64,000 nucleotides of DNA from Escherichia coli (lineage in GTDB: Bacteria; Pseudomonadota; Gammaproteobacteria; Enterobacterales; Enterobacteriaceae). Location of the stretch: the NCBI RefSeq assembly GCF_002854065.1, contig NZ_CP024147.1, one strand, 5' to 3'. Below, in pieces: positions 1,609 to 45,181 of the stretch. Each line of letters opens with the position of its first letter. Positions within the stretch are counted from its first letter, which is position 1. The position numbers were made by a program, and so were the translations under genes. The notes under the pieces are model-generated. The model was not told where the DNA came from. It was given only the letters and a program-made list of their open reading frames with translations, and searched no databases.

Positions 1609-3390
1609 ATGGCAAAAATGAGAGCCGTTGACGCGGCAATGTATGTGCTGGAGAAAGAAGGTATCACCACCGCCTTCGGTGTTCCGGGAGCTGCAATCAA
1701 TCCGTTCTACTCAGCGATGCGTAAGCACGGCGGTATTCGTCACATTCTGGCGCGTCATGTGGAAGGTGCTTCGCACATGGCGGAAGGTTATACCCGCGCA
1801 ACGGCAGGGAATATCGGCGTATGTCTGGGGACTTCCGGTCCTGCGGGCACGGACATGATCACCGCGCTCTATTCTGCTTCTGCTGATTCCATTCCTATTC
1901 TGTGCATTACCGGCCAGGCTCCGCGCGCCCGTCTGCATAAAGAAGATTTTCAGGCCGTAGATATTGAAGCAATTGCTAAACCGGTCAGCAAAATGGCGGT
2001 TACAGTACGTGAAGCGGCGCTGGTGCCTCGCGTGCTGCAACAGGCATTTCACCTGATGCGTTCTGGTCGTCCGGGTCCGGTACTGGTGGATTTACCGTTC
2101 GACGTTCAGGTTGCGGAAATCGAGTTTGATCCTGACATGTACGAACCGCTGCCGGTCTACAAACCTGCTGCCAGCCGTATGCAGATCGAAAAAGCTGTAG
2201 AAATGTTAATCCAGGCCGAACGTCCGGTGATTGTTGCCGGGGGCGGGGTAATCAATGCTGACGCAGCTGCACTGTTACAACAGTTTGCTGAACTGACCAG
2301 CGTTCCGGTGATCCCAACGCTGATGGGCTGGGGCTGTATCCCGGACGATCATGAACTGATGGCCGGGATGGTCGGTCTGCAAACCGCGCATCGTTACGGT
2401 AACGCAACGTTGCTGGCGTCCGACATGGTGTTTGGTATCGGTAACCGTTTTGCTAACCGTCATACCGGTTCGGTAGAGAAATACACCGAAGGGCGCAAAA
2501 TCGTTCATATCGATATTGAGCCGACGCAAATTGGTCGCGTGCTGTGTCCGGATCTCGGCATTGTCTCTGATGCTAAAGCGGCGCTGACACTGCTGGTTGA
2601 AGTGGCGCAGGAGATGCAAAAAGCGGGTCGTCTGCCGTGTCGTAAAGAATGGGTCGCCGACTGCCAGCAGCGCAAACGCACTTTGCTGCGCAAAACCCAC
2701 TTCGACAACGTGCCGGTGAAACCGCAGCGCGTGTATGAAGAGATGAACAAAGCCTTTGGTCGCGATGTTTGTTATGTCACCACCATTGGCCTGTCACAAA
2801 TCGCTGCGGCACAAATGCTGCATGTCTTTAAAGACCGCCACTGGATCAACTGTGGTCAGGCTGGTCCGTTAGGCTGGACGATTCCGGCGGCGCTGGGGGT
2901 TTGTGCCGCTGATCCGAAACGCAATGTGGTGGCGATTTCTGGCGACTTTGACTTCCAGTTCCTGATTGAAGAGTTAGCCGTTGGCGCGCAGTTCAACATT
3001 CCGTACATCCATGTGCTGGTGAATAACGCCTATCTCGGCCTGATTCGTCAGTCACAACGCGCCTTTGACATGGACTACTGCGTGCAACTCGCTTTCGAGA
3101 ATATCAACTCCAGCGAAGTGAACGGTTACGGCGTCGACCACGTAAAAGTAGCGGAAGGTTTAGGTTGTAAAGCGATTCGCGTCTTCAAACCGGAAGATAT
3201 TGCACCGGCCTTTGAACAGGCGAAAGCCTTAATGGCGCAATATCGGGTACCGGTAGTCGTGGAAGTTATTCTCGAGCGTGTGACCAATATTTCGATGGGC
3301 AGCGAACTGGATAACGTCATGGAATTTGAAGATATCGCCGATAACGCAGCGGATGCACCGACTGAAACCTGCTTCATGCACTATGAATAA
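1609..3390 (+). CDS. gcl: glyoxylate carboligase (tartronate-semialdehyde synthase)
   Basis: 593 aa from [18 protein letters not shown]; ThDP-enzyme; track ORF 1519 start rejected because terminator and operator lie inside the extension. Confidence 0.92.
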
Positions 3391-3402
3391 GGGAGATAAA
3401 TA

Positions 3403-4179
3403 ATGTTACGTTTCTCTGCTAATTTATCGATGTTATTTGGTGAATATGATTTTCTCGTCCGTTTTGAGAAAGCTGCGCAGTGTGGTTTTCGCGGCGTTGA
3501 ATTTATGTTCCCTTATGACTACGACATTGAAGAATTAAAACAGGTACTGGCGAGTAATAAACTCGAACATACGCTGCACAATTTACCGGCAGGTGACTGG
3601 GCGGCGGGCGAGCGGGGTATTGCCTGTATTCCTGGCCGTGAAGAAGAGTTTCGGGATGGCGTAGCAGCAGCGATTCGTTATGCTCGTGCGCTGGGTAATA
3701 AAAAAATTAACTGTCTGGTCGGTAAAACGCCGACTGGTTTCAGCAGTGAACAGATTCACGCAACGCTTGTAGAAAACCTGCGTTATGCCGCGAATATGCT
3801 GATGAAAGAAGATATTTTATTACTGATTGAACCTATTAACCATTTTGATATTCCTGGTTTCCATCTCACCGGAACTCGGCAGGCGCTGAAATTGATTGAT
3901 GATGTTGGTTGCTGCAATTTGAAAATTCAGTATGACATTTATCACATGCAGCGGATGGAAGGTGAATTAACCAACACCATGACTCAGTGGGCCGATAAAA
4001 TTGGTCACCTGCAAATTGCCGATAATCCGCATCGCGGCGAACCGGGGACCGGAGAAATTAATTATGATTATCTCTTTAAGGTAATCGAAAATTCTGACTA
4101 CAACGGTTGGGTTGGTTGTGAATATAAACCCCAAACTACCACGGAAGCCGGTTTACGCTGGATGGATCCGTACCGTTAA
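3403..4179 (+). CDS. hyi: hydroxypyruvate isomerase
   Basis: 258-aa ORF recognised as Hyi; gcl-hyi-glxR synteny. Confidence 0.9.
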   Translation: MLRFSANLSMLFGEYDFLVRFEKAAQCGFRGVEFMFPYDYDIEELKQVLASNKLEHTLHNLPAGDWAAGERGIACIPGREEEFRDGVAAAIRYARALGNKKINCLVGKTPTGFSSEQIHATLVENLRYAANMLMKEDILLLIEPINHFDIPGFHLTGTRQALKLIDDVGCCNLKIQYDIYHMQRMEGELTNTMTQWADKIGHLQIADNPHRGEPGTGEINYDYLFKVIENSDYNGWVGCEYKPQTTTEAGLRWMDPYR

Positions 4180-4278
4180 AACGTAACGCTGTTCAGGCAA
4201 TGCTTTTTTAGGCCGCTAAGTTGGCAGGGGATCGTGTTGTCTGAATCCAGGAAAAGCAAAATTTAAAAGAGGTTAATT

Positions 4279-5157
4279 ATGAAACTGGGATTTATTGGCT
4301 TAGGCATTATGGGTACACCGATGGCCATTAATCTGGCGCGTGCCGGTCATCAACTGCATGTCACAACCATTGGTCCGGTTGCTGATGAATTACTGTCACT
4401 GGGTGCCGTCAGTGTTGAAACTGCGCACCAGGTAACGGAAGCATCGGACATCATTTTTATTATGGTGCCGGATACACCACAGGTTGAAGAAGTTCTGTTC
4501 GGTGAAAATGGTTGTACCAAAGCCTCGCTGAAGGGCAAAACCATTGTTGATATGAGCTCCATTTCCCCGATTGAAACTAAACGTTTCGCTCGTCAGGTGA
4601 ATGAACTGGGCGGTGATTATCTCGATGCGCCAGTCTCCGGCGGTGAAATCGGCGCGCGTGAAGGGACGTTGTCAATTATGGTTGGCGGTGACGAAGCGGT
4701 ATTTGAACGTGTTAAACCGCTGTTTGAACTGCTCGGTAAAAATATCACCCTTGTGGGCGGTAACGGCGACGGTCAAACCTGCAAAGTGGCAAATCAGATT
4801 ATCGTAGCGCTCAATATTGAAGCGGTCTCTGAAGCTCTGCTGTTTGCTTCAAAAGCCGGTGCAGACCCGGTACGTGTGCGCCAGGCGCTGATGGGCGGCT
4901 TTGCTTCCTCACGTATTCTGGAAGTTCACGGTGAGCGCATGATTAAACGCACCTTTAATCCAGGTTTCAAAATTGCGCTGCACCAGAAAGATCTCAACCT
5001 GGCACTGCAAAGTGCGAAGACACTGGCGCTGAACCTGCCAAACACCGCGACCTGCCAGGAGTTATTTAATACCTGTGCGGCAAACGGTGGCAGCCAGTTG
5101 GATCACTCTGCGTTAGTGCAGGCGCTGGAATTAATGGCGAATCATAATCTGGCCTGA
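4279..5157 (+). CDS. glxR: tartronate semialdehyde reductase
   Basis: 292-aa ORF with N-terminal GxGxxG NAD-binding motif (GFIGLGIMG); recognised as GlxR. Confidence 0.9.
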   Translation: MKLGFIGLGIMGTPMAINLARAGHQLHVTTIGPVADELLSLGAVSVETAHQVTEASDIIFIMVPDTPQVEEVLFGENGCTKASLKGKTIVDMSSISPIETKRFARQVNELGGDYLDAPVSGGEIGAREGTLSIMVGGDEAVFERVKPLFELLGKNITLVGGNGDGQTCKVANQIIVALNIEAVSEALLFASKAGADPVRVRQALMGGFASSRILEVHGERMIKRTFNPGFKIALHQKDLNLALQSAKTLALNLPNTATCQELFNTCAANGGSQLDHSALVQALELMANHNLA

Positions 5158-5325
5158 TACCCGCAATAAAAATGGCCGATATCAGAAAATGAATCGGCCA
5201 GCAATATTAAAAAAGAAAGCAGCCAAAGATGTTGCTTCAGTATTAAAAATAATATTTTTATTTTATTTGTTCCTCATAGCTAGATTAAAACAACGTTATT
5301 CGATACGTGAAATTAAGAGGGATTT

Positions 5326-6780
5326 ATGGAACATCAGAGAAAACTATTCCAGCAACGCGGCTATAGCGAAGATCTATTGCCGAAAACGCAAAGCCAGCGG
5401 ACCTGGAAAACATTTAACTATTTTACCTTATGGATGGGTTCGGTTCATAACGTTCCCAATTATGTGATGGTCGGCGGCTTTTTTATTCTCGGCTTGTCTA
5501 CCTTTAGTATTATGCTGGCAATTATCCTCAGCGCCTTTTTCATTGCCGCGGTAATGGTATTAAACGGCGCTGCGGGCAGTAAATACGGCGTACCGTTTGC
5601 CATGATCCTGCGTGCTTCTTACGGCGTACGTGGCGCACTGTTTCCCGGATTATTAAGAGGCGGTATTGCTGCCATTATGTGGTTTGGCCTGCAATGTTAC
5701 GCGGGGTCACTGGCCTGCTTGATTCTGATTGGCAAAATCTGGCCGGGATTTTTGACTCTCGGTGGTGATTTCACTCTATTAGGCCTTTCTCTACCGGGCT
5801 TAATTACTTTCTTACTCTTCTGGCTGGTCAACGTTGGTATAGGTTTTGGCGGTGGCAAAGTTTTAAATAAATTCACTGCCATTCTTAACCCGTGCATCTA
5901 TATCGTTTTCGGCGGTATGGCGATTTGGGCGATTTCGCTGGTCGGGCTCGGTCCAATCTTTGACTACATTCCGAGCGGTATTCAGAAAGCAGAAAACAGT
6001 GGATTCTTGTTCCTGGTGGTGATTAACGCGGTAGTTGCGGTCTGGGCGGCACCGGCGGTGAGCGCATCCGACTTTACGCAAAACGCCCACTCGTTTCGTG
6101 AGCAAGCGCTGGGGCAAACGCTGGGTTTAGTTGTGGCCTATATTCTGTTTGCGGTCGCTGGGGTATGTATTATTGCCGGAGCCAGTATTCACTACGGCGC
6201 TGACACCTGGAACGTGCTGGATATTGTTCAGCGTTGGGACAGCCTGTTTGCCTCGTTCTTTGCGGTACTGGTTATTCTGATGACGACCATTTCCACTAAC
6301 GCCACCGGTAATATTATTCCGGCCGGTTATCAGATTGCTGCCATTGCACCGACAAAACTGACCTATAAAAACGGCGTACTGATTGCCAGTATTATCAGCC
6401 TGCTGATCTGCCCGTGGAAATTAATGGAAAATCAGGACAGTATTTATCTGTTCCTCGATATCATCGGCGGAATGCTGGGTCCGGTAATTGGTGTCATGAT
6501 GGCGCATTATTTTGTGGTGATGCGTGGGCAAATTAATCTTGATGAACTGTACACCGCACCTGGCGATTATAAATATTACGATAACGGTTTTAACCTCACC
6601 GCGTTTTCAGTAACTCTGGTGGCCGTTATTTTATCTCTTGGCGGTAAGTTTATTCCCTTTATGGAACCGTTATCGCGTGTTTCATGGTTTGTCGGCGTCA
6701 TCGTCGCCTTTGCGGCCTACGCCTTATTAAAGAAACGTACAACAGCAGAAAAAACAGGAGAGCAAAAAACCATAGGTTAA
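5326..6780 (+). CDS. ybbW: allantoin permease (NCS1 family transporter)
   Basis: 484-aa polytopic membrane ORF recognised as YbbW/AllW. Confidence 0.85.
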   Translation: MEHQRKLFQQRGYSEDLLPKTQSQRTWKTFNYFTLWMGSVHNVPNYVMVGGFFILGLSTFSIMLAIILSAFFIAAVMVLNGAAGSKYGVPFAMILRASYGVRGALFPGLLRGGIAAIMWFGLQCYAGSLACLILIGKIWPGFLTLGGDFTLLGLSLPGLITFLLFWLVNVGIGFGGGKVLNKFTAILNPCIYIVFGGMAIWAISLVGLGPIFDYIPSGIQKAENSGFLFLVVINAVVAVWAAPAVSASDFTQNAHSFREQALGQTLGLVVAYILFAVAGVCIIAGASIHYGADTWNVLDIVQRWDSLFASFFAVLVILMTTISTNATGNIIPAGYQIAAIAPTKLTYKNGVLIASIISLLICPWKLMENQDSIYLFLDIIGGMLGPVIGVMMAHYFVVMRGQINLDELYTAPGDYKYYDNGFNLTAFSVTLVAVILSLGGKFIPFMEPLSRVSWFVGVIVAFAAYALLKKRTTAEKTGEQKTIG

Positions 6781-6839
6781 TTAATCCCGATATTGAACAT
6801 TGAGTTAAAAACCAATCTGTATTTTACAAGGAGTTTGTT

Positions 6840-8201
6840 ATGTCTTTTGATTTAATCATTAAAAACGGCACCGTTATTTTAGAAAACGAAGCTCGCGTTG
6901 TAGATATCGCCGTTAAAGGCGGCAAAATTGCTGCTATCGGTCAGGATCTGGGCGATGCAAAAGAAGTTATGGATGCGTCTGGTCTGGTGGTTTCGCCGGG
7001 CATGGTTGATGCGCACACCCATATTTCTGAACCGGGTCGTAGCCACTGGGAAGGTTATGAAACCGGTACTCGCGCAGCGGCAAAAGGTGGTATCACCACC
7101 ATGATCGAAATGCCGCTCAACCAGCTGCCTGCAACGGTTGACCGCGCTTCAATTGAACTGAAGTTCGATGCCGCTAAAGGCAAGCTGACTATCGATGCGG
7201 CACAACTCGGTGGCCTGGTGTCTTACAACATCGACCGTCTGCATGAGCTGGATGAAGTGGGCGTTGTCGGCTTCAAATGCTTCGTTGCGACCTGTGGCGA
7301 TCGCGGTATCGACAACGACTTCCGTGATGTAAACGACTGGCAGTTCTTCAAAGGTGCGCAGAAGCTGGGCGAACTGGGGCAGCCGGTGCTGGTGCACTGC
7401 GAAAACGCGCTGATCTGTGACGCACTGGGCGAAGAAGCGAAACGTGAAGGTCGCATAACTGCCCATGACTATGTGGCTTCGCGTCCGGTATTTACCGAAG
7501 TGGAAGCGATTCGCCGCGTGCTGTATCTGGCGAAAGTTGCCGGTTGCCGTCTGCACGTTTGCCATATCAGCAGCCCGGAAGGCGTTGAAGAAGTGACTCG
7601 TGCACGTCAGGAAGGTCAGGACGTTACTTGTGAATCCTGCCCGCATTACTTTGTACTGGATACCGATCAGTTCGAAGAAATCGGTACTCTGGCGAAGTGT
7701 TCACCGCCGATCCGCGATCTGGAAAACCAGAAAGGCATGTGGGAAAAACTGTTTAACGGTGAAATCGACTGCCTGGTTTCCAACCACTCACCATGCCCTC
7801 CGGAAATGAAAGCCGGCAACATCATGGAAGCATGGGGCGGTATTGCCGGTCTGCAAAACTGTATGGACGTGATGTTCGATGAAGCGGTACAGAAACGCGG
7901 AATGTCTCTGCCAATGTTCGGCAAATTAATGGCGACTAACGCAGCAGATATTTTCGGTCTGCAGCAAAAAGGCCGTATCGCCCCAGGAAAAGATGCCGAC
8001 TTCGTCTTCATTCAGCCGAATAGCAGCTATGTTCTTACCAATGACGATCTGGAATATCGCCACAAAGTCAGCCCGTATGTTGGCCGTACCATTGGCGCGC
8101 GTATCACGAAAACCATCTTACGTGGTGATGTGATTTACGACATCGAACAGGGCTTCCCTGTTGCGCCGAAAGGTCAATTTATCCTTAAACATCAGCAGTA
8201 A
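6840..8201 (+). CDS. allB: allantoinase
   Basis: 453-aa ORF with amidohydrolase metal-binding motifs (DAHTH); recognised as AllB. Confidence 0.92.
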
Positions 8202-8251
8202 TCTGGCCCCTGCAATGCCCGTCCTTGCGGCGGGCATTCTCCGGTTAAGGT

Positions 8252-9559
8252 GTGTTTATGTTCAATTTTGCAGTTAGCCGCGAAAGCCTGTTATCAGGAT
8301 TTCAGTGGTTTTTCTTTATTTTTTGCAACACGGTTGTGGTTCCTCCTACGCTACTTTCTGCTTTTCAGTTGCCGCAAAGTAGCCTGCTTACGCTCACGCA
8401 ATATGCTTTTCTTGCTACCGCACTGGCCTGCTTCGCTCAGGCGTTTTGCGGTCATCGTCGCGCTATTATGGAAGGGCCGGGGGGCCTGTGGTGGGGAACC
8501 ATCCTAACTATCACCCTTGGCGAAGCATCGCGCGGGACACCGATCAACGATATCGCCACCAGCCTGGCAGTGGGGATTGCGCTCTCCGGCGTGCTGACGA
8601 TGTTGATTGGTTTTAGCGGATTAGGCCATCGCCTGGCACGGTTATTTACGCCGTCGGTGATGGTCTTGTTTATGTTGATGCTGGGCGCGCAGCTGGCCAC
8701 TATCTTTTTCAAAGGTATGCTCGGGCTGCCGTTTGGCATAGCCGACCCAAATTTTAAAATTCAGTTACCACCGTTCGCGCTCTCGGTGGCGGTGATGTGC
8801 CTAGTACTGGCGATGATTATTTTCCTGCCGCAACGTTTTGCCCGTTATGGCCTGCTGGTCGGCACCATAACCGGCTGGTTGTTGTGGGACTTTTGCTTTC
8901 CTTCTTCGCATTCGCTCTCCGGTGAGTTGCACTGGCAGTGGTTCCCGCTCGGCAGTGGCGGTGCTTTGTCTCCGGGGATTATTCTGACGGCGGTGATTAC
9001 AGGTCTGGTGAATATCAGCAATACCTACGGTGCGATTCGGGGCACGGATGTTTTTTATCCGCAGCAGGGCGCGGGGAATACGCGTTATCGTCGTAGCTTT
9101 GTGGCGACCGGATTTATGACGCTGATAACCGTACCGCTGGCGGTAATTCCATTTTCACCGTTTGTTTCATCCATTGGTTTATTAACCCAGACTGGCGATT
9201 ACACGCGGCGTTCGTTTATTTATGGCAGCGTTATTTGCCTGCTGGTGGCGCTGGTTCCTGCACTCACGCGACTGTTTTGCAGTATCCCTTTACCCGTGAG
9301 TAGTGCGGTCATGCTGGTTTCTTATCTGCCTTTACTCTTTTCCGCGCTGGTGTTTAGCCAGCAAATAACGTTTACCGCTCGCAATATTTATCGACTCGCA
9401 TTGCCGTTATTTGTCGGCATATTTTTAATGGCATTACCGCCTGTGTATCTGCAAGACCTTCCATTAACGCTTCGTCCTCTGCTCAGTAACGGCTTATTGG
9501 TCGGGATTTTACTGGCTGTTCTTATGGATAACCTTATTCCGTGGGAACGCATCGAATAA
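8252..9559 (+). CDS. ybbY: putative purine/uracil permease family transporter
   Basis: 435-aa hydrophobic ORF recognised as YbbY; start may be 2 codons later. Confidence 0.8.
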   Translation: MFMFNFAVSRESLLSGFQWFFFIFCNTVVVPPTLLSAFQLPQSSLLTLTQYAFLATALACFAQAFCGHRRAIMEGPGGLWWGTILTITLGEASRGTPINDIATSLAVGIALSGVLTMLIGFSGLGHRLARLFTPSVMVLFMLMLGAQLATIFFKGMLGLPFGIADPNFKIQLPPFALSVAVMCLVLAMIIFLPQRFARYGLLVGTITGWLLWDFCFPSSHSLSGELHWQWFPLGSGGALSPGIILTAVITGLVNISNTYGAIRGTDVFYPQQGAGNTRYRRSFVATGFMTLITVPLAVIPFSPFVSSIGLLTQTGDYTRRSFIYGSVICLLVALVPALTRLFCSIPLPVSSAVMLVSYLPLLFSALVFSQQITFTARNIYRLALPLFVGIFLMALPPVYLQDLPLTLRPLLSNGLLVGILLAVLMDNLIPWERIE

Positions 9560-9580
9560 TTTGTTGAAAAAGGATTGATA

Positions 9581-10726
9581 ATGAAGATTGTCATTGCGCC
9601 AGACTCTTTTAAAGAGAGCTTAAGTGCAGAAAAATGTTGTCAGGCAATTAAAGCCGGGTTTTCGACCCTCTTTCCCGATGCGAACTATATCTGTTTGCCG
9701 ATAGCGGATGGCGGCGAAGGGACGGTGGATGCGATGGTCGCCGCGACGGGCGGCAACATCGTGACGCTTGAAGTCTGCGGGCCGATGGGCGAAAAAGTGA
9801 ATGCTTTTTATGGCATTACCGGCGACGGGAAAACGGCGGTGATTGAGATGGCGGCAGCAAGTGGCCTGATGCTGGTCGCGCCTGAAAAGCGTAATCCGTT
9901 GCTGGCCTCCAGTTTTGGTACGGGGGAGTTAATTCGTCATGCGCTGGATAACGGCATTCGCCATATTATTCTCGGCATTGGCGGCAGTGCGACGGTCGAC
10001 GGCGGTATGGGCATGGCGCAGGCGCTCGGTGTGCGTTTCCTTGATGCCGACGGTCAGGTGCTGGTGGCTAACGGCGGCAATTTAGCGCGCGTGGCAAGCA
10101 TTGAGATGGAGGAATGCGATCCGCGTCTGGCGAACTGCCATATTGAAGTAGCATGTGACGTTGATAACCCGCTGGTAGGGGCACGCGGCGCGGCGGCGGT
10201 GTTTGGCCCGCAAAAAGGGGCAACGCCGGAGATGGTCGAAGAACTTGAACAGGGGCTGCAAAATTACGCCCGTGTTTTACAACAGCAAACTGAAATTAAT
10301 GTCTGCCAGATGGCGGGCGGCGGCGCTGCGGGCGGTATGGGTATTGCGGCGGCGGTATTTCTCAATGCGGATATTAAACCGGGTATTGAGATTGTACTGC
10401 GTGCGGTCAACCTGGAGCAGGCGGTGCAGGGGGCAGCACTGGTGATCACCGGGGAAGGGCGCATTGACTCGCAAACGGCAGGCGGTAAAGCGCCGCTGGG
10501 CGTTGCGTCGGTGGCGAAGCAGTTTAATGTACCGGTGATTGGGATTGCTGGCGTATTGGGTGATGGCGTGGAAGTGGTGCACCAGTACGGCATTGACGCG
10601 GTATTCAGCATTTTGCCACGTCTGGCACCTTTAGCCGAAGTGCTCGCCAGCGGTGAAACCAATCTCTTCAACAGCGCGCGAAATATTGCCTGCGCCATTA
10701 AAATAGGTCAGGGAATTAAAAACTGA
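9581..10726 (+). CDS. glxK: glycerate kinase II
   Basis: 381 aa from [14 protein letters not shown]; recognised as GlxK. Confidence 0.88.
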
Positions 10727-10883
10727 CCCTTACCTTTAAAGCGGATGCTATTTATTTCGTATAAGAGCGCAGTGCTCATGCCGGATGCTGCATGAGCACT
10801 ATATCCTTCCTGAAAATCGCGCAAATTCTATATATTGCAGAGATCATGTAGGCCTGATAAGCGAAGCGCATCAGGCAATGTTA

Positions 10884-10911
10884 CAAAAAAAGCCACGGTA
10901 TAAACCGTGGC
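10884..10911 (-). terminator. rho-independent terminator downstream of allE (minus strand)
   Basis: Hairpin GCCACGGT-ataa-ACCGTGGC followed by U-run when read on minus strand. Confidence 0.5.
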
Positions 10912-10953
10912 AAAATCCAACATAGCTAAAAATAATCAGGCGAGTGGTATGAC

Positions 10954-11739
10954 TTAAATCTCTACGTCGCGGTTGCAATCTTTCGAGTAAATATAGCTGA
11001 ACGCTTCACCACGCCCTACGCCATAACCAGCCTGTAAAGAATAAGCGCCCATAAAGATGTAATCGCCTTTTTTCACCGGGATCCAGTTATTGTCGAGGTT
11101 ATAAACCCCCTGACCGGAAAGAATATAGGCACCGTGTTCCTGAACGTGTGTTTCGATATAACCATGGCTGGCACCTGGTGCAAAAGAGAGGATATGCATG
11201 TTCATATCAAAACCTAACTCTTTGGGCAGAAAATCCAGCAGGATCACATCATCCATACCTTCATAGTGAATGCGTTCCAGTTCGCTGGCATTGCCAGAAA
11301 CCAGCCACGGTGCATGGCCTTCTACCGGAACATAGCGGCGCTTATATAAAAAGATTTGGCTGTCTTCGGCCTGGGCGTTAACAAACGTCATTAAGGAGCC
11401 TGGCGGGCAATAAAGATAGCCACCTTCGCTTAAGGCAAATGTTTTGCCTTCGGCTTTGGCAGTGATATTTCCAGAGATCACATACAGGAACGTTTCAATG
11501 CCTTCGCCACCGAAGCCCTGTTGGTTGCCACCGTTTTGATGCAGTGTGACCAGATAATCAACAAAAGAGGCACCCAGCTTTGGCGTGGAGAGGATTGTCG
11601 CGTCACAATTTTCAAAGCCCGGAATAATATTTTTTACCAGACCGTCTGGTGTTAACAGTGCGAAATTACCGTGTTTCACAATCGCACGGTTAGCCAGTAA
11701 ATCATCGCGGTAACCGGTGACGTTATTTAAATATCCCAT
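10954..11739 (-). CDS. allE: ureidoglycine aminohydrolase (cupin)
   Basis: 261-aa ORF recognised as YlbA/AllE. Confidence 0.88.
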   Translation of the reverse strand: MGYLNNVTGYRDDLLANRAIVKHGNFALLTPDGLVKNIIPGFENCDATILSTPKLGASFVDYLVTLHQNGGNQQGFGGEGIETFLYVISGNITAKAEGKTFALSEGGYLYCPPGSLMTFVNAQAEDSQIFLYKRRYVPVEGHAPWLVSGNASELERIHYEGMDDVILLDFLPKELGFDMNMHILSFAPGASHGYIETHVQEHGAYILSGQGVYNLDNNWIPVKKGDYIFMGAYSLQAGYGVGRGEAFSYIYSKDCNRDVEI

Positions 11740-11749
11740 TTATGACTCC

Positions 11750-12985
11750 TTATTTCTGCCAGGCAAGTTGATAAAGCATGAGTGCCAACGTTTTGACCCC
11801 TTCGGCAAGGTCGGTAATATTGGTGCGTTCCGCCGGGTTATGGCTGATCCCGTTGATGCTGGGGATAAAAATCATGCAGGTTGGTACGCGAGGCGCGAAA
11901 ATTTGCGCGTCGTGCCCGGCACCACTGTGCATCACCCGGTAATTCAGTTTTTCACTTTCACACAATTCTGTCAGGGTGGCGACCAGGTCCTTATTCATCG
12001 GCACGGGTTCTTCGTCCATCCATAAATCGATATCAATACCAATGTCCATTTCATCGCAAATCGCCCGCATGTCGTTTTCTAACTGTTGGGTGAAATCACG
12101 CAGCACGGCGGCGTCGGTATGACGACAATCAATGGTGAACGTGGTTTTACCCGGCACCACATTCACCGTATTCGGGCGCGGCTCTACTTTCCCAAAGGTC
12201 AGAACCAGCGGATCGCCCATCTTTTTCGCTTTTTCGATCGACTGATGGCAAATGCGACTGAAAGCGTAAACCGTATCACGACGATAACCCATCGGCGTGG
12301 TGCCTGCATGGTTTGATTCGCCGTTCAGCGTCACCGTATAGCGACGTTGCCCGACAATTGCATTCACCACGCCAATTGATTGCCCATTACTTTCCAGCAC
12401 ACAGCCCTGTTCGATATGCAGTTCGACAAAGGCTTTAATATCCTGACGCGGAGTTAGCGGGGCGTCCGGCAGAGTAAATCCGCAAGCCTTCATCGCATCG
12501 ACAAAACTATTTCCTTTGGCATCACAGATATTCCGCACGTCGTCAGGATTCGCCAGCCCAAAGATATTTTTACTGCCCCAGAAAACATACGGGAAGCGGC
12601 TGCCTTCTTCTTCTGCCATCGCCACCACTTCAACCGTACGCAGCGGTGCGCCGTATTGCGTTTTCAGCCAGTCAATTGCCAGCCACGCCGCCAGCGCGCC
12701 GAATTGCCCGTCGAGGTTACCGCCGTTAACCACGGTATCGATATGCGAACCGCTCAGAACCACTTCCTGTGGATATTCGGTGCCATTCAGGCGACCGTAT
12801 AAATTCCCCACTTCATCGAAACGTGTTTCCAGCCCGCTTGCTGCCATTCTTTTTTTAAATTGCTGCTGGGTTTCCAGCCATTCCGGCGAATAAAGTAAAC
12901 GGGTCATCCCACCCGTTGGGTCAGCGCCAAATGAGGAAAGCCAGGGCAGCGCTTCTTCTATGGCTTGACGAAAATGTGTAATCAT
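11750..12985 (-). CDS. allC: allantoate amidohydrolase
   Basis: 411 aa from MITHFRQAIEE; M20 peptidase-family ORF recognised as AllC. Confidence 0.9.
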   Translation of the reverse strand: MITHFRQAIEEALPWLSSFGADPTGGMTRLLYSPEWLETQQQFKKRMAASGLETRFDEVGNLYGRLNGTEYPQEVVLSGSHIDTVVNGGNLDGQFGALAAWLAIDWLKTQYGAPLRTVEVVAMAEEEGSRFPYVFWGSKNIFGLANPDDVRNICDAKGNSFVDAMKACGFTLPDAPLTPRQDIKAFVELHIEQGCVLESNGQSIGVVNAIVGQRRYTVTLNGESNHAGTTPMGYRRDTVYAFSRICHQSIEKAKKMGDPLVLTFGKVEPRPNTVNVVPGKTTFTIDCRHTDAAVLRDFTQQLENDMRAICDEMDIGIDIDLWMDEEPVPMNKDLVATLTELCESEKLNYRVMHSGAGHDAQIFAPRVPTCMIFIPSINGISHNPAERTNITDLAEGVKTLALMLYQLAWQK

Positions 12986-13006
12986 AAGAAAGTCCTGTCT
13001 CAATAA

Positions 13007-14056
13007 TTATTGCGCAAAGGGATTTTTCGTTTCGTATGACGTGTTATAAAGCGCGTCGGAAATTAAATACTGGTAAATATCATCAACAATTTCGATGCCT
13101 TCGACGGCGGCTTTGCGTTGTTTAATATCCTGATCCTGTCCGGGATAATAAACCTGATTAAAACCGGGCGCGGGGGTAATGGCATTTAATTCGCGCATGG
13201 TCTGGCTAAGATGTTGACGGAATAATTCGCTGGAGGAGAAAAAGTTCGGGTTAATAACTACATGTAATTGCCCCAAATTACGCCCGGCGTGTAAATCGTC
13301 ATACATCGAACTAACCTGTCGCCCGAACGGTAAGCCGAGTAAGACGCCTGAGAGGACGTCAATCATCATCATCAGGCCATACCCTTTCGGCCCGGCTGCG
13401 GGGAGCAGAGCATGTACCGCGAACGGATCGGTTGTTGGTGCACCGTTTTTATCGACCGCCCAGGTATCCGGGATAGACATATTACGCGAGCGGGCGTCGA
13501 GCACTTTTCCCCATGCCTGTACGGTAGTCGCCATATCAAAGGTAAGGATCTCGTCGCCTTCTCCCGGCGCGGCAAAGGCCAGTGGGTTAGTACCGTAGTA
13601 AATTTCCGCGCCGCCAAACGGCACCACCATTGGATCGGACTGGCACATCGAAATGCCAATTAATCCGGCGCGGGCTGCCTGCTGCACAAAATAAGAGATT
13701 GCGCCGCTGTGACCCATCCGGCTGATACCGACCACCGCAACGCCATTTTGCTGGGCGGTTTTGATGGCATGTTCCATACCCATTTTCGCCGCGACCTGTC
13801 CGGCGGCATTGTCGGCATGTAAAATTGCCGAGCACGGCCCGGTTTCCTCAAGACGAAACTCCGGTTCGCGGTTGGTGCCGCCTTTTGAAATGCGTTCCGC
13901 GTAGTATTCCACGCGCACCGCGCCATGAGAGTGGATCCCTCTGGCATCGGCGTAAACCAATACTTCAGCCACGGTTGCAGCGTGCTCACGTTTTAACCCA
14001 GCCTGGCAGAGCTTATTCTCGATTAGCTGGTGGAGTGTTTCCCGACTGATTTTCAT
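13007..14056 (-). CDS. allD: ureidoglycolate dehydrogenase
   Basis: 349-aa ORF recognised as AllD; allE-allC-allD operon order. Confidence 0.9.
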   Translation of the reverse strand: MKISRETLHQLIENKLCQAGLKREHAATVAEVLVYADARGIHSHGAVRVEYYAERISKGGTNREPEFRLEETGPCSAILHADNAAGQVAAKMGMEHAIKTAQQNGVAVVGISRMGHSGAISYFVQQAARAGLIGISMCQSDPMVVPFGGAEIYYGTNPLAFAAPGEGDEILTFDMATTVQAWGKVLDARSRNMSIPDTWAVDKNGAPTTDPFAVHALLPAAGPKGYGLMMMIDVLSGVLLGLPFGRQVSSMYDDLHAGRNLGQLHVVINPNFFSSSELFRQHLSQTMRELNAITPAPGFNQVYYPGQDQDIKQRKAAVEGIEIVDDIYQYLISDALYNTSYETKNPFAQ

Positions 14057-41033: not shown

Positions 41034-41858
41034 ATGGAAGTCAACAAAAAGCAGCTGGCTGACATTTTCGGTGCGAGTATCCGTACCATTCAGAACTGGC
41101 AGGAACAGGGAATGCCCGTTCTGCGAGGCGGTGGCAAGGGTAATGAGGTGCTTTATGACTCTGCCGCCGTTATAAGATGGTATGCCGAAAGGGATGCTGA
41201 AATTGAGAACGAAAAGCTGCGCCGGGAAGTTGAAGAACTGCGGCAGGCCAGCGAGACAGATCTCCAGCCAGGGACTATTGAGTACGAACGCCATCGACTT
41301 ACGCGTGCGCAGGCCGACGCACAGGAGCTGAAAAATGCCAGAGACTCCGCTGAAGTGGTGGAAACCGCATTCTGTACTTTCGTGCTGTCGCGGATCGCAG
41401 GTGAAATTGCCAGTATTCTCGACGGGATCCCCCTGTCGGTGCAGCGGCGTTTCCCGAACGGCACGGTCGATGTGTTCCGCGGCTGGGTCAGCAGTATCGG
41501 TAAGGCGGTGACGGCGAAGGAAGTGATTACCCGCACGGTGAAAGTCACCAACGTAGGACGTCCGTCGATGGCAGAAGATCGCAGCACGGTAACAGCGGCA
41601 ACCGGCATGACCGTGACGCCTGCCAGCACCTCGGTGGTGAAAGGGCAGAGCACGACGCTGACCGTGGCATTCCAGCCGGAAGGCGCAACCGACAAGAGCT
41701 TCCGTGCGGTGTCTGCGGATAAAACAAAAGCCACCGTGTCGGTCAGTGGTATGACCATCACCGTGAAAGGTGTTGCTGCAGGCAAGGTCAACATTCCGGT
41801 CGTATCCGGTAATGGTGAGTTTGCTGCGGTTGCAGAAATCAACGTCACCGCCAGTTAA
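41034..41858 (+). CDS. nohD: terminase small subunit Nu1 N-terminal 141 aa fused to tail tube V-like Ig (Big_2) C-terminal domain
   Basis: First 141 aa match lambda Nu1 ([30 protein letters not shown]...); remainder matches C-terminus of lambda gpV ending VTAS. Confidence 0.85.
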
Positions 41859-41873
41859 TCCGGAGAGTCAGCG

Positions 41874-42224
41874 ATGTTCCTGAAAACCGAATCATTTGAA
41901 CATAACGGTGTGACCGTCACGCTTTCTGAACTGTCAGCCCTGCAGCGTATTGAGCATCTCGCCCTGATGAAACGACAGGCAGAACAGGCGGAGTCAGACA
42001 GCAACCGGAAGTTTACTGTGGAAGACGCCATCAGAACCGGCGCTTTTGTGGTGGCGATGTCCCTGTGGCATAACCATCCGCAGAAGACAAAGCTGCCTTC
42101 TATGAATGAATTGGTGCTCATACGCACTCCGTTGCGATTGGTTCACATGGACACACCATCACCGTTAACGCTGCTGGTAACGCGGAAAACACCGTCAAAA
42201 ACATCGCATTTAACTATATTGTGA
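41874..42224 (+). pseudogene. tail assembly chaperone G-like fragment
   Basis: First ~80 aa match lambda gpG (MFLKTESFEHNGVTVTLSEL...), then diverge. Confidence 0.6.
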
Positions 42225-42234
42225 GGCTTGCATA

Positions 42235-42819
42235 ATGGCATTCAGAATGAGTGAACAACCACGGACCATAAAAATTTATAATCTGCTGGCCGGAACTAAT
42301 GAATTTATTGGTGAAGGTGATGCATATATTCCGCCTCATACAGGTCTGCCAGCAAACAGTACCGATATTGCACCGCCAGATATTCCTGCTGGCTTTGTGG
42401 CTGTTTTCAACAGTGATGAGGCATCGTGGCATCTCGTTGAAGACCATCGGGGTAAAACGGTTTATGACGTAGCGTCAGGGGACGCGTTATTTATTTCTGA
42501 ACTCGGTCCGTTACCGGAAAATGTTACCTGGTTATCGCCGGAAGGGGAGTTTCAGAAGTGGAACGGCACAGCCTGGGTGAAAGATGCAGAAGCAGAAAAA
42601 CTGTTCCGGATCCGGGAGGCGGAAGAAACAAAAAACAGCCTGATGCAGGTAGCCAGTGAGCATATTGCGCCACTTCAGGATGCTGTAGATCTGGAAATCG
42701 CAACGGAGGAAGAAACCTCATTGCTGGAAGCCTGGAAAAAGTATCGGGTGTTGCTGAACCGTGTTGATACATCAACTGCACCTGATATTGAGTGGCCTAC
42801 GAACCCTGTCAGGGAGTAA
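42235..42819 (+). CDS. tfaD: tail fiber assembly protein
   Basis: 194-aa Tfa-family ORF. Confidence 0.8.
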
Positions 42820-42873
42820 TCATTGGGATTATGCCGCAGCACGTCTTAAGCAAGAACGTGCTGCGGTTGGATG

Positions 42874-43542
42874 CTATTTTTTCCCTGAAGCGGAAAACAT
42901 TACTACAGTACCTTGAACCTTGGTTTTAACATTCTCGAAATGCTCTGAGAGTATATGTGTTAAGCCTTCTTCAGAATCTTTTGTGTTTGAAAAGATGCCT
43001 TTCTGATTGTAAATGCGCATCAGTTTTTGACCGAAGCTATTGTGCACAACTCCATCGCCAAGAATTGTGGCTCCGTATAGAGTTCCATCGTCAGTTAAGG
43101 CCTGCGCCGCATTGCGTATTACACAGCTTTTTGTAGATATATTTCCAGGCAGGCAGTGAAGAAGGTAAAACATGGAAATGGAATCAAATTGACCATGTAA
43201 CGCCGCGGGATAAGGTTCAAAAACATCATGGCTAATTTTATGTTTAATTTTTGATTCCCCAGCCCTTGTAGATGCCGCGTTCAGGCTAGCTTCGTTCAAA
43301 TCCATTAAAGATATCAGACTACTCTCAGGTACGTGAGTAAGGTAAAACCCAGTTCCAACACCAATATCCAGATGGTTGTTACCTAAATGTTCCAGAAAGT
43401 GTGGAAGAAGGTGTTCCTTTGTAGGACATCCCCATGCAAGCCGATTTGATACTCCCAAAACCCACCAGTCATAAAGCTTTAGGGTAAGTGGTGTGTAAAT
43501 TTTAGCCCCATCATCTGTGTTTTTTTTCATTAATTTCACCAT
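42874..43542 (-). CDS. ybcY: class I SAM-dependent methyltransferase
   Basis: 222-aa ORF with motif I DIGVGTGF. Confidence 0.7.
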   Translation of the reverse strand: MVKLMKKNTDDGAKIYTPLTLKLYDWWVLGVSNRLAWGCPTKEHLLPHFLEHLGNNHLDIGVGTGFYLTHVPESSLISLMDLNEASLNAASTRAGESKIKHKISHDVFEPYPAALHGQFDSISMFYLLHCLPGNISTKSCVIRNAAQALTDDGTLYGATILGDGVVHNSFGQKLMRIYNQKGIFSNTKDSEEGLTHILSEHFENVKTKVQGTVVMFSASGKK

Positions 43543-43598
43543 GTTATAGTTTTATTTGTGAGTTAAATCAATTATGGCAATGAATTACAAGGGGTTAA

Positions 43599-43852
43599 AT
43601 GCTGCCGCAGCATAGCGATATTGAAATAGCCTGGTATGCTTCAATACAGCAGGAGCCGAATGGCTGGAAGACCGTCACCACACAGTTCTACATCCAAGAA
43701 TTCAGTGAGTATATTGCGCCACTGCAGGATGCTGTAGATCTGGAAATCGCAACGGAGGAAGAAAGATCGTTGCTGGAAGCCTGAAAAAAGTATCGGGTGC
43801 TGCTAAACCGTGTGGACACTTCCGTAGCACCAGATATCGAGTGGCTTATTCA
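43599..43852 (+). pseudogene. tfaX: tail fiber assembly gene remnant truncated by IS1
   Basis: C-terminal Tfa-like segment with internal TGA, duplicate of tfaD 3' end, interrupted by IS1. Confidence 0.6.
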
Positions 43853-43907
43853 GGTGATGCTGCCAACTTACTGATTTAGTGTATGATGGTGTTTTTGAGG
43901 TGCTCCA

Positions 43908-44183
43908 GTGGCTTCTGTTTCTATCAGCTGTCCCTCCTGTTCAGCTACTGACGGGGTGGTGCGTAACGGCAAAAGCACTGCCGGACATCAGCGCTATCTC
44001 TGCTCTCACTGCCGTAAAACATGGCAACTGCAGTTCACTTACACCGCTTCTCAACCCGGTACGCACCAGAAAATCATTGATATGGCCATGAATGGCGTTG
44101 GATGCCGGGCAACCGCCCGCATTATGGGCGTTGGCCTCAACACGATTTTCCGCCATTTAAAAAACTCAGGCCGCAGTCGGTAA
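43908..44183 (+). CDS. insA: IS1 InsA
   Basis: 91-aa [33 protein letters not shown]. Confidence 0.9.
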
Positions 44184-44605
44184 CCTCGCGCATACAGCCG
44201 GGCAGTGACGTCATCGTCTGCGCGGAAATGGACGAACAGTGGGGATACGTCGGGGCTAAATCGCGCCAGCGCTGGCTGTTTTACGCGTATGACAGTCTCC
44301 GGAAGACGGTTGTTGCGCACGTATTCGGTGAACGCACTATGGCGACGCTGGGGCGTCTTATGAGCCTGCTGTCACCCTTTGACGTGGTGATATGGATGAC
44401 GGATGGCTGGCCGCTGTATGAATCCCGCCTGAAGGGAAAGCTGCACGTAATCAGCAAGCGATATACGCAGCGAATTGAGCGGCATAACCTGAATCTGAGG
44501 CAGCACCTGGCACGGCTGGGACGGAAGTCGCTGTCGTTCTCAAAATCGGTGGAGCTGCATGACAAAGTCATCGGGCATTATCTGAACATAAAACACTATC
44601 AATAA
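44102..44605 (+). CDS. insB: IS1 InsB (expressed as InsAB' by -1 frameshift)
   Basis: 167-aa ORF in -1 frame relative to insA; A6C slippery motif at 44159-44165. Confidence 0.85.
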
Positions 44606-45181
44606 GTTGGAGTCATTACCGCTTATTCAACCATAATAAACAGTATGTATATCATAGGTTATTAATTGTGAGTTTTTTCGGTGTGTTATTTGTTTGTTTG
44701 ATGTTATGCTTTTGCGCCCCAAAAGGTTGTTTAGATGTATTTTATCAATTGATTTTCAATATCGTTTAATAAAGAAAAATTAAGCAAGCTGGATGTTGGT
44801 TTTTTGTTAATTGAATGGTTCTAATAATGTTTTTTTACTGTTGTTGAATGTGACTTGATAAGAAATGCAAGTAAAAATGATACTCTTTTTATTTTAAATT
44901 CAAACGGTTGACATATATATAGCAAGAGGTTTCAGGTGCGTTGTAGTGAGTTTATGTTAATAAAAAGTATAGTAAGCGTTGAAAAATGTAACTTTGAAAT
45001 ACGTTAGAATAAAAAACAATATACATATAATAATTTAATCTTAAATGAAATTTATTAAAATTTGCAAACTATAATTTTGTGTATAAAAATATAAATGCAC
45101 ATCATCCTGATTATGATTGTGTATTTAATTGGTTGTTATTTGACTGCTATCAACTTGTTTTAATTTTATGATAGGTGCAAG

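Follow-up and report, generated by a model that had tools for sequence, protein, structure and literature searches.

How does a prophage remnant come to hold two copies of the end of one tail-fibre assembly gene, with a methyltransferase gene between them and an insertion sequence at the tip of the second copy, and what, if anything, did that insertion change? We addressed this question in a 64-kb stretch of Escherichia coli DNA (hereafter the window), in which IS1 adjoins a remnant called tfaX, and ybcY lies between this remnant and the intact gene tfaD. The explanation that we hold to be very probable has two parts: 1) a simple insertion of IS1 into the right arm of a prophage of the DLP12 type; and 2) tfa repeats that form a mosaic boundary. 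The features on which the argument draws are collected in Table 1.

Table 1. Features of the tfaD-appY region, in window coordinates.
Feature	Coordinates	Strand	Description	Basis
tfaD	42235..42819	+	intact lambda-type tail fibre assembly gene, 194 aa	Caudo_TAP E=3e-45; phrog_105
tfa direct repeat, copy 1	42643..42799	+	3' part of tfaD	repeat search; alignment to copy 2
10-bp inverted repeat	42834..42866	.	CCGCAGCACG / CGTGCTGCGG, 13-nt loop, between convergent tfaD and ybcY	
ybcY	42874..43542	-	intact class I SAM-dependent methyltransferase gene, 222 aa; phage cargo gene	
tfaX remnant up to IS1 junction	43599..43852	+	31 unique codons, then tfa C-terminal homology	
tfa direct repeat, copy 2	43692..43848	+		repeat search, BLAST, alignment
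In-frame TGA in tfaX	43783..43785	+	TGG in tfaD and phage PhiR26_1	
Target-site duplication, left copy	43844..43852	.	GCTTATTCA	sequence and empty-site comparison
IS1	43853..44620	+	768 bp; IRL adjoins tfaX, transposase points at appY	sequence, script check
IS1 IRL	43853..43875	+		script check
insA	43908..44183	+	91 aa	Pfam Zn_ribbon_InsA and HTH_Tnp_IS1; NCBIfam transpos_IS1
insB' frame	44102..44605	+	DDE domain	Pfam DDE_Tnp_IS1 E=6e-78
A6C -1 frameshift motif	44159..44165	+	AAAAAAC	simulated -1 shift
IS1 IRR	44598..44620	-		script check
Target-site duplication, right copy	44621..44629	.	GCTTATTCA	sequence and empty-site comparison
Displaced final 7 nt of tfaX frame	44630..44636	+	A CCA TAA	sequence and empty site
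AT-rich tfaX-appY spacer	44637..45181	+	22-30% GC	composition profile

The locus resembles the right arm of DLP12

With tfaD, ybcY on the opposite strand, tfaX', appY, and ompT, the locus is the right arm of a cryptic lambdoid prophage of the DLP12 type. The DLP12 of E. coli K-12 has the same gene order and orientation, the in-frame stop in tfaX, and the AT-rich spacer between tfaX and appY. The two sequences are approximately 98.6-98.8% identical here, and the window adds IS1, as well as IS2 in ompT. The arrangement as a whole is known biology.

The genes to the left of the remnant are in good order. TfaD scores above the gathering score of Pfam PF02413 (Caudo_TAP) over profile positions 1-130, and its gene has about 92% DNA identity to the tfa of phage lambda, including some 50 bp downstream; lambda, however, has this tfa only, with neither ybcY nor a second tfa fragment. 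YbcY matches phrog_2132 over its full length (E=8e-157) and exceeds the Pfam cut-offs of Methyltransf_12, _23, _25, and _11, which predicts a Rossmann-type methyltransferase domain; NCBIfam profiles gave no family for YbcY or TfaD. The inverted repeat between the two convergent genes is possibly a bidirectional terminator. A terminator scan of 42600-45300 called none, with a loop limit of 8 nt against the 13 nt of this hairpin. The hairpin start, 42834, is also where homology begins in phage PhiR68_2, i.e., the left edge of its ybcY cassette.

The tfa repeats and a cassette found in phages

The original prediction placed ybcY between direct repeats of about 170 bp. The repeats are real, and the ybcY that they bracket is intact and oppositely oriented, but their length is about 145-157 bp: 134 of 157 positions are identical (85%) at a spacing of 1,049 bp, the BLAST core is 143 bp long (42654-42796 and 43703-43845; 88.1%, E=1e-42), and the tfaD stop lies 20 nt beyond the end of the repeat at 42799. 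Without a mismatch, the two copies agree over at most 40 bp (42676-42715, equal to 43725-43764). A minimal efficient processing segment takes some 25 bp or more of perfect identity; this block is longer, which makes the pair a suitable substrate for homologous recombination. No dedicated recombinase is implicated at the tfa locus in the window, and our literature search returned nothing on recombination between tfa repeats.

These repeats do not stem from local decay; instead, tfa(3' end)-ybcY-tfa' is a conserved cargo cassette of lambdoid phages. The module is present in the complete genome records of phages PhiR26_1, PhiR68_2, and Nesevirus 2G7b, in the order stf-tfa-ybcY(-)-tfa' and then ompT, at 97-98% identity; PhiR68_2 carries appY as well, and none of these records has IS1. 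The tfa' of PhiR26_1 is intact (101 aa) and that of 2G7b has a 7-bp deletion, and full-length PHROG family matches exist for both YbcY and the short Tfa'. The left edges of the cassette vary (42674, 42700, and 42834). We propose that the flanking tfa 3' segments form a mosaic boundary, at which homologous recombination has linked the appY-ompT arm to varied tail-fibre gene sets, sometimes with ybcY and sometimes not.

Hybrid tfa genes and the history of the repeats

If such a boundary is active, ybcY could be deleted or duplicated by recombination between the repeats, as had been suggested, and for deletion we found natural junctions. A single D-to-X hybrid tfa that abuts the upstream region of appY, with ybcY missing, occurs in nine of 5,426 complete genomes, as counted with a 505-bp single-piece query that cannot be joined from two normal pieces. 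An 825-bp deletion query was discarded because its 462 matches were two normal pieces joined as one. The duplication half of the suggestion fared less well: a 700-bp query for the predicted X-to-D junction of a tandem ybcY duplication gave no single-piece junction among its top 25 matches, and the two-piece matches, the only ones among those listed, are the normal arrangement seen out of order.

Five of the nine hybrids were typed, and they show four different D-to-X switch points. That of EM18-18-42 and WGI31CT lies at 42676-42715, within the 40-bp identical block; the other intervals are 42736-42750, 42757-42764, and ~42769-42770. The hybrid Tfa proteins end in EWLIQP and the stop. In both EM18-18-42 and WGI31CT, the TGA specific to tfaX is found in a tfa that is otherwise of the lambda type, and it is in these two only that the sequence itself shows the direction, a deletion; for most recombination events we infer the direction. 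The hybrids L008, L009, and L011 have an intact tfa, and their single-tfa state could be ancestral and not the product of a deletion.

Shen and Huang are said to have found in 1986 that RecA-dependent exchange usually requires about 25 bp of perfect homology. Of the four switch intervals, three fall short of this length, and the true parental sequences of the hybrids probably differed from the tfa copies of the window. Single clean D-to-X switches in a 157-bp, 85%-identical repeat are also what is seen in deletions between short diverged direct repeats, and module exchange at the conserved ends of tail-fibre genes has reportedly been described in phages, by Haggard-Ljungquist in 1992 and Sandmeier in 1994. 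Set beside these known processes, nothing here is unusual.

The repeats could have a different origin, which we consider possible if somewhat doubtful: they would be the footprint of cassette acquisition, with an ancestral single tfa upstream of appY into which tfa3'-ybcY-tfa' was inserted later. This would account for the hybrids that have an intact 191-aa tfa in complete-looking prophages (gpJ-lom-stf-tfa-appY), for the variable left edge of the cassette and its presence after several tail-fibre gene sets that are unrelated to one another, and for FDAARGOS_1250, which has only the X-type fragment, without ybcY. It agrees less well with the two genomes that carry the tfaX TGA and switch in the 40-bp block, as deletion from a D-ybcY-X parent predicts, and with the rarity of the hybrids and their roughly four switch points, whereas ~3,788 of the 5,426 genomes (~70%) hold both junction halves of the ybcY cassette.

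An ordinary IS1 at the tip of a pseudogene

The element at the end of the second repeat had been predicted to be IS1 with a 9-bp target duplication, and a script check confirmed what is read from the sequence: the duplication is perfect on both sides. There is no third occurrence of this 9-mer on either strand of the window, and a chance match of two given 9-mers has a probability of 4^-9 (~4e-6). The terminal inverted repeats, GGTGATGCTGCCAACTTACTGAT and GGTAATGACTCCAACTTATTGAT, are imperfect, matching at 18 of 23 positions, the InsAB' obtained by the simulated -1 shift is a stop-free protein of 232 aa, and NCBIfam transpos_IS1 matches both transposase halves. The element has the length, inverted repeats, insA/insB', A6C motif, 232-aa fusion, and 9-bp duplication of IS1, which is described as 768 bp long, with IRL/IRR, insA/insB, A6C, a 232-aa InsAB', and 8- or 9-bp duplications (PMC12428005). 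Judged by all its sequence features, this copy is ordinary and intact. It differs at one position from a copy of strain 100416 annotated as IS1B-family and is 98.8% identical to a copy annotated as IS1A-family. Relative to the known IS1 of E. coli and Shigella (IS1A-F of K-12; the 100416 copy), its anatomy is the same and only the insertion site differs.

That IS1 interrupts a degenerate tfa copy, as had been stated, is true to the letter, although marginally so. The insertion point is 7 nt before the tfaX stop codon and 4 nt past the end of the tfaD/tfaX homology, within the last two codons of the remnant, so that in the frame GAG TGG CTT ATT CA/A CCA TAA (the slash marks IS1) only the second-last codon is split. 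We delimited the remnant by the ORF at 43599-43784 and by alignments to tfaD and the intact 101-aa phage Tfa'; the peptide first quoted for it is correct, including the in-frame TGA. It lacks the N-terminal two thirds and a complete, uninterrupted frame. The intact phage Tfa' itself matches positions 75-121 only of the Caudo_TAP profile, and tfaX is that C-terminal part with a stop added. The annotation of relatives lists tfaX as an incomplete tfa interrupted by a stop. Because tfaX was a truncated pseudogene already, the insertion destroyed nothing.

IS1 insertions in the vicinity

Other strains suggest that IS1 repeatedly lands at the edge of the H-NS-silenced, AT-rich island, and we infer a regional target preference. 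In STEC346, an IS1 in inverted orientation lies 30 bp further downstream and has the target duplication ATCATAGGT; FCI54 has an IS1 ~220 bp downstream of tfaX; PSS-11 has one within ybcY; and in four genomes IS1 is found at the extreme 3' end of other tfa paralogues, these four single-piece matches having IRL adjoining tfa, the only orientation that the query was able to detect. The idea that IS1 favours one orientation at tfa 3' ends was dropped, as a mirrored query found inverted insertions too. Mimicry of the IS1 end was also rejected: GGTGTTGCTG in tfaD equals nine of the first ten IRL nucleotides, the tfaX copy actually used, GGTGCTGCTA, equals eight of ten, and such a match is estimated to occur in ~8% of 200-nt stretches. 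The collection holds tens of thousands of IS1 places, so that some of the clustering near tfa could be due to chance. IS1 copies near here sit, in other strains, at the ends of large deletions.

One could go further and regard the tfa 3' end as a linker that moves ybcY-tfa' between tail-fibre modules and that is, together with the AT-rich DNA, a hot spot for IS1. We find this rather unlikely.

A role for IS1 in the expression of appY is less likely still, and indeed improbable. The element is at the upstream edge of the spacer, at the GC-to-AT boundary, 562 bp before the appY ATG, and this spacer is in K-12 an H-NS-silenced 'promoter island' (PMC4469952, PMC3946193). An IS1 at the distal edge of H-NS-bound DNA, reading towards appY, might be expected to change expression, the more so as a study on bgl states that insertion of IS1 or IS5 upstream of that operon relieves H-NS silencing (PMC9678765). 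Yet the mapped start sites are within ~115 bp of the ATG and the fragment tested spans -260 to -61 (PMC4469952), all of which IS1 spares; the promoter of IS1 is said to be extremely weak (PMC12428005); and other strains tolerate nearby IS1 in either orientation, which fits neutrality.

A recent and private insertion

The perfect duplication and a collinear empty site, present in a phage as well as in a relative of 99.9% identity, bear out the simple transposition that had been predicted. In E. coli 100416, the closest complete genome, the site is empty, with one copy of the 9-mer, and reads GAGTGGCTTATTCAACCATAATAAAC; aligned to the window, it yields blocks that share exactly 9 bp at the insertion site, and the flanks are collinear over >16 kb on one side and >2.4 kb on the other, at 99.9% identity. 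Phage PhiR68_2 likewise has an empty site with a single GCTTATTCA. The IS1 junction was found in none of the 5,426 complete E. coli genomes: two matches cover the junction query fully, neither spans it as one piece, and PSS-11, the one that was inspected, carries its IS1 within ybcY. A metagenome scan gave 0 contigs with the left IS1 junction, and in contigs of the lineage that shares ompT::IS2 the sequence continues uninterrupted across the empty site. Since the site is empty in the relative and the phage, and the junction is absent from these genomes and contigs, the insertion is, on sequence grounds, recent, simple, and private to the strain. It is later than the ompT::IS2 event in the same lineage. 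A literature search on ybcY and tfaX returned promoter and H-NS mapping papers only, and no IS1 at this site.

Mechanistically, InsAB' would have made staggered cuts 9 bp apart at the target, the repair of which would then have duplicated it, in a single simple insertion by an intact element that hardly differs from the lineage's other IS1 copies. That an assembly error put IS1 here, or that IS1-IS1 recombination did so through inversion, deletion, or cointegrate resolution, is extremely improbable, for although relatives are prone to IS1-associated deletions (gcl-allC in 100416; FCI54), the sequence on either side follows that of the empty site in unbroken order and the duplication is perfect, where such recombination would leave unmatched 9-mers on the two sides.

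Implications

The insertion provides a clean private marker that separates this strain from its nearest sequenced relatives, a use limited mostly to strain typing, and the element is portable homology beside appY-ompT, which is relevant to genome engineers. The diverged repeat of ~150 bp in the prophage tail-fibre region offers a small natural example of a recombination junction, and the IS1 copies at the edge of the AT-rich island offer one of repeated insertion; both processes are known. Should the less likely linker and hot-spot reading be true, the 101-aa Tfa' (phrog_2341) would be maintained in some phages, and IS1 could alter the silencing of appY.

The prophage arm and recombination between its tfa repeats

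The region 42235-45931 belongs to a cryptic lambdoid prophage of DLP12 type and forms its right arm; the features of this arm are collected in the table. Among complete genomes, E. coli 100416 (stool, Gambia) is the closest, with an identity of 99.95% over 16.6 kb left of the IS1 and of 99.9% to its right; its annotation gives a tail fiber assembly protein, a class I SAM-dependent methyltransferase, an incomplete second tail fiber assembly protein with an internal stop, appY, and ompT. Upstream of the arm, the stretch 41034-42234 is the scar of a large internal deletion of prophage head and tail genes. The ORF at 41034-41858 joins a terminase small-subunit N-terminus (Nu1/NohD-like) to an Ig-like domain segment, and is followed by fragments named gpG and tail protein in 100416.

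Features of the prophage arm, in window coordinates
Feature	Coordinates	Strand	Description
tfaD	42235-42819	+	194 aa; Pfam Caudo_TAP E=3e-45
Direct repeat, tfaD copy	42643-42799		157 bp
Inverted repeat	42834-42866		10-bp stem; between tfaD and ybcY
ybcY	42874-43542	opposite	222 aa; class I SAM-methyltransferase domains; phrog_2132 full-length
tfaX	from 43599		Short tfa remnant
Direct repeat, tfaX copy	43692-43848		157 bp
tfaX TGA	43783-43785		TGG in tfaD and phage PhiR26_1
IS1	43853-44620		Between tfaX remnant and spacer
insA	43908-44183		Zinc ribbon and HTH domains of InsA
insB'	to 44605		DDE_Tnp_IS1 E=6e-78
Spacer			22-30% GC; between IS1 and appY
appY	45182-45931

The direct tfa repeats noted around ybcY are real, even if their original length of ~170 bp was a slight overestimate: the two copies, spaced by 1,049 bp, share 134 identities (85%), with a BLAST core of 143 bp (88%, E=1e-42) and a longest identical run of 40 bp. 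The tfa peptide quoted for the remnant was correct. In both copies the conserved codons for YRVLLNRVD (GGTGTTGCTGAACCGTGTTGAT in tfaD; 42741-42763 and 43790-43812) resemble the first 10 nt of the IS1 IRL, at 9/10 nt in tfaD and 8/10 in tfaX; by a rough estimate, the likeness of tfaX, the copy actually hit, is not significant.

These repeats had been proposed to mediate deletion or duplication. We searched complete genomes for the product that such a deletion would leave: the 5' part of tfaD, a crossover within the repeat, the 3' end of tfaX, and the sequence downstream of the empty site. The 505-bp query was chosen so that joining two normal pieces cannot match it. Coverage of at least 80% was found in 10 genomes, nine of which match full-length in a single piece (EM18-18-42, WGI31CT, CFIAFB20190172, Res13-Lact-PER13-34, SFE8, MIN6, QA-1986 83, ES7, and ES8). 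The six hybrids that we inspected have one 576-bp tfa directly before appY-ompT and lack ybcY, and envY-ybcH-nfrA is visible where the flank reaches far enough. Typing of five hybrids at the 23 sites that differ between the window's tfaD and tfaX copies revealed in each a single switch from tfaD to tfaX, with at most one stray site. EM18-18-42 and WGI31CT switch between 42675 and 42716, within the 40-bp block of identity; Res13 does so between 42735 and 42751, CFIAFB20190172 between 42756 and 42765, and SFE8, representative of five genomes that share the same match scores, at ~42769-42770. Among the top matches, the reciprocal duplication junction did not appear.

The hybrids could instead represent the state before acquisition of the cassette formed by the tfa 3' end, ybcY, and the second tfa. 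This could hold for those that encode an intact 191-aa Tfa ending in VAPDIEWLIQP and a stop, which could also have arisen by deletion, the crossover then lying downstream of the TGA. However, EM18-18-42 and WGI31CT carry the tfaX TGA within an otherwise lambda-type tfa (annotated "internal stop"), as predicted by deletion from a tfaD-ybcY-tfaX parent; an ancestral state would hardly explain it. Judged from these junctions, repeat-mediated recombination appears to be real in natural populations, and unremarkable.

The cassette in phages and other genomes

The tfa-ybcY-tfa' module, with ybcY reversed, is found in lambdoid phage genomes at 97-98% identity: upstream of ompT in PhiR26_1, PhiR29/30, 2G7b, and ev243, and as the entire ybcY-tfaX-appY-ompT arm in PhiR68_2. 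In PhiR26_1 the second tfa of the module is whole, with an ORF of 101 aa (L004 4865-5170; phrog_2341 matched full-length); a 7-bp deletion breaks it in 2G7b (L005 4400-4698), and in PhiR68_2 and E. coli chromosomes it has the TGA. Lambda has tfa alone with ~50 bp of the common downstream sequence. The left edge of the cassette varies as well: it is at 42674 in two E. coli strains, at 42700 in 2G7b, and at the hairpin (42834) in PhiR68_2. In FDAARGOS_1250 a tfaX-type fragment starts at the equivalent of 42700, without ybcY. Both halves of the cassette junctions occur in ~3,788/5,426 genomes. The arrangement is not peculiar to the window prophage, and the tfa 3' end is therefore a mosaic boundary common to many tail-fibre modules. 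One decay variant of the cassette, in ZH177 (L015 3297-3300), has an internal ybcY deletion of ~212 bp (window-equivalent 43299-43510).

A simple, private, and recent IS1 insertion

The IS1 is exactly 768 bp long, with ends GGTGATGCTGCCAACTTACTGAT and GGTAATGACTCCAACTTATTGAT, and a simulated -1 shift at its AAAAAAC (44159) gives a 232-aa InsAB' without interruption. It matches the feature list of PMC12428005, in which the target duplication is of 8 or 9 bp. As first noted, a 9-bp duplication, GCTTATTCA, flanks it (43844-43852 and 44621-44629); the 64-kb window contains no further copy of this 9-mer on either strand. The empty site GAGTGGCTTATTCAACCATAATAAAC, with a single 9-mer, is present in 100416 and PhiR68_2, and the window's two alignment blocks against 100416 overlap by exactly 9 bp. 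The flanking pair and the single 9-mer of the empty sites together show a simple insertion, and the original reading of simple transposition stands; the same evidence led us to reject IS1-IS1 recombination as its origin. An IS1 of 100416 annotated as IS1B-family differs from the window copy by one base.

The element does interrupt the tfa remnant, cutting its second-last codon (GAG TGG CTT ATT CA/A CCA TAA, the slash marking the cut), but the similarity between tfaD and tfaX had ended 4 nt before. The remnant was already dead when IS1 arrived, because it has the TGA and covers only positions 75-121 of the Caudo_TAP profile; the insertion is without coding consequence. The IS1 reads towards appY and ends 562 bp upstream of its ATG; it leaves intact the appY start sites mapped in PMC4469952 (-25, -113, and ~-83) as well as the island fragment tested there (-260 to -61). 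By analogy with bgl, an effect on H-NS silencing of appY could be imagined, but we consider it very improbable.

The insertion is private and recent. With a 1.7-kb query across the element, none of the 5,426 complete RefSeq E. coli genomes spans it in a single piece; the two full-coverage matches are both in three pieces and longer than the query, one of them, PSS-11, having on inspection an IS1 within ybcY, and GF66.2 showing the same match pattern. The junctions with tfaX were not found with 240-bp queries centred on left and right, nor did the exact 32-nt pattern of the left junction match metagenome contigs. Public contigs with the same ompT::IS2 allele pass straight through an empty tfaX site, which makes the IS1 younger than the IS2.

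This IS2 (1,331 bp, 47112-48442, ORFs InsC/InsD) interrupts ompT (minus strand) in codon 8-9, flanked by a duplication of 5 bp, GGACT (whole feature 47107-48447), and is not in 100416. The resulting 237-aa OmpT fragment occurs on contigs from 41 blocks of public assemblies, which makes this ompT-null allele widespread; loss of OmpT is known to be pathoadaptive in Shigella and EIEC. In 100416 an IS1 (L010 14231-15026) replaces ~9.8 kb, between the 3' end of gcl and a point upstream of allD, that the window keeps (3260-13037). This makes 100416 and the window strain sister lineages with separate IS1 events.

IS1 in the neighbourhood

IS1 reportedly inserts into AT-rich DNA and depends on H-NS for transposition (Zerbib 1985; Shiga 2001, the latter cited in PMC12428005). 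The window IS1 lies where the GC content drops, from ~48% (tfaX) to 22-30% (spacer). In K-12 this spacer has been described as a "promoter island" silenced by H-NS (PMC4469952); both the ybcY/tfaX and tfaX/appY spacers have listed H-NS and RpoD sites (PMC3946193). An inverted, independent IS1 (IS1A-family by annotation) lies in the tfaX-appY spacer of STEC346 (L026 2151-2918), 30 bp downstream of the window target, with duplication ATCATAGGT (window-equivalent 44651-44659). The copies in FCI54 (L013 3170-3937; ~220 bp downstream of tfaX and joined to ybhB-bioA) and AH21A060 (H10; ybcY-IS1-nfrA) mark large deletions, and appY-ompT loss with IS1 is recurrent. In four genomes, other tfa paralogues, such as tfaQ, have an IS1 no more than ~35 bp from their stop codon, and in PSS-11 one lies within ybcY. 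Taken together, these positions suggest a regional preference of IS1 for this neighbourhood, although some of the clustering could be chance; an apparent orientation bias was rejected as an artefact of query design.

Among side observations, the IS1 at the tfaQ 3' tip of HCP6S3_I1 (L022 1608-2375) appears to be flanked by a direct duplication of 18 bp, CAACTGCACCGGATATTG, rather than of 9 bp. At loci L023, L024, and L025 the IS1 copies, at nearby positions of other tfa paralogues, have the normal duplication of 9 bp. In gut metagenome contig ERZ943753 (L017 1-126) the IS1 right end adjoins ompT (window-equivalent 46908), a third, independent IS insertion in ompT in public data.

The window IS1 is an ordinary polymorphism in a well-known prophage arm.
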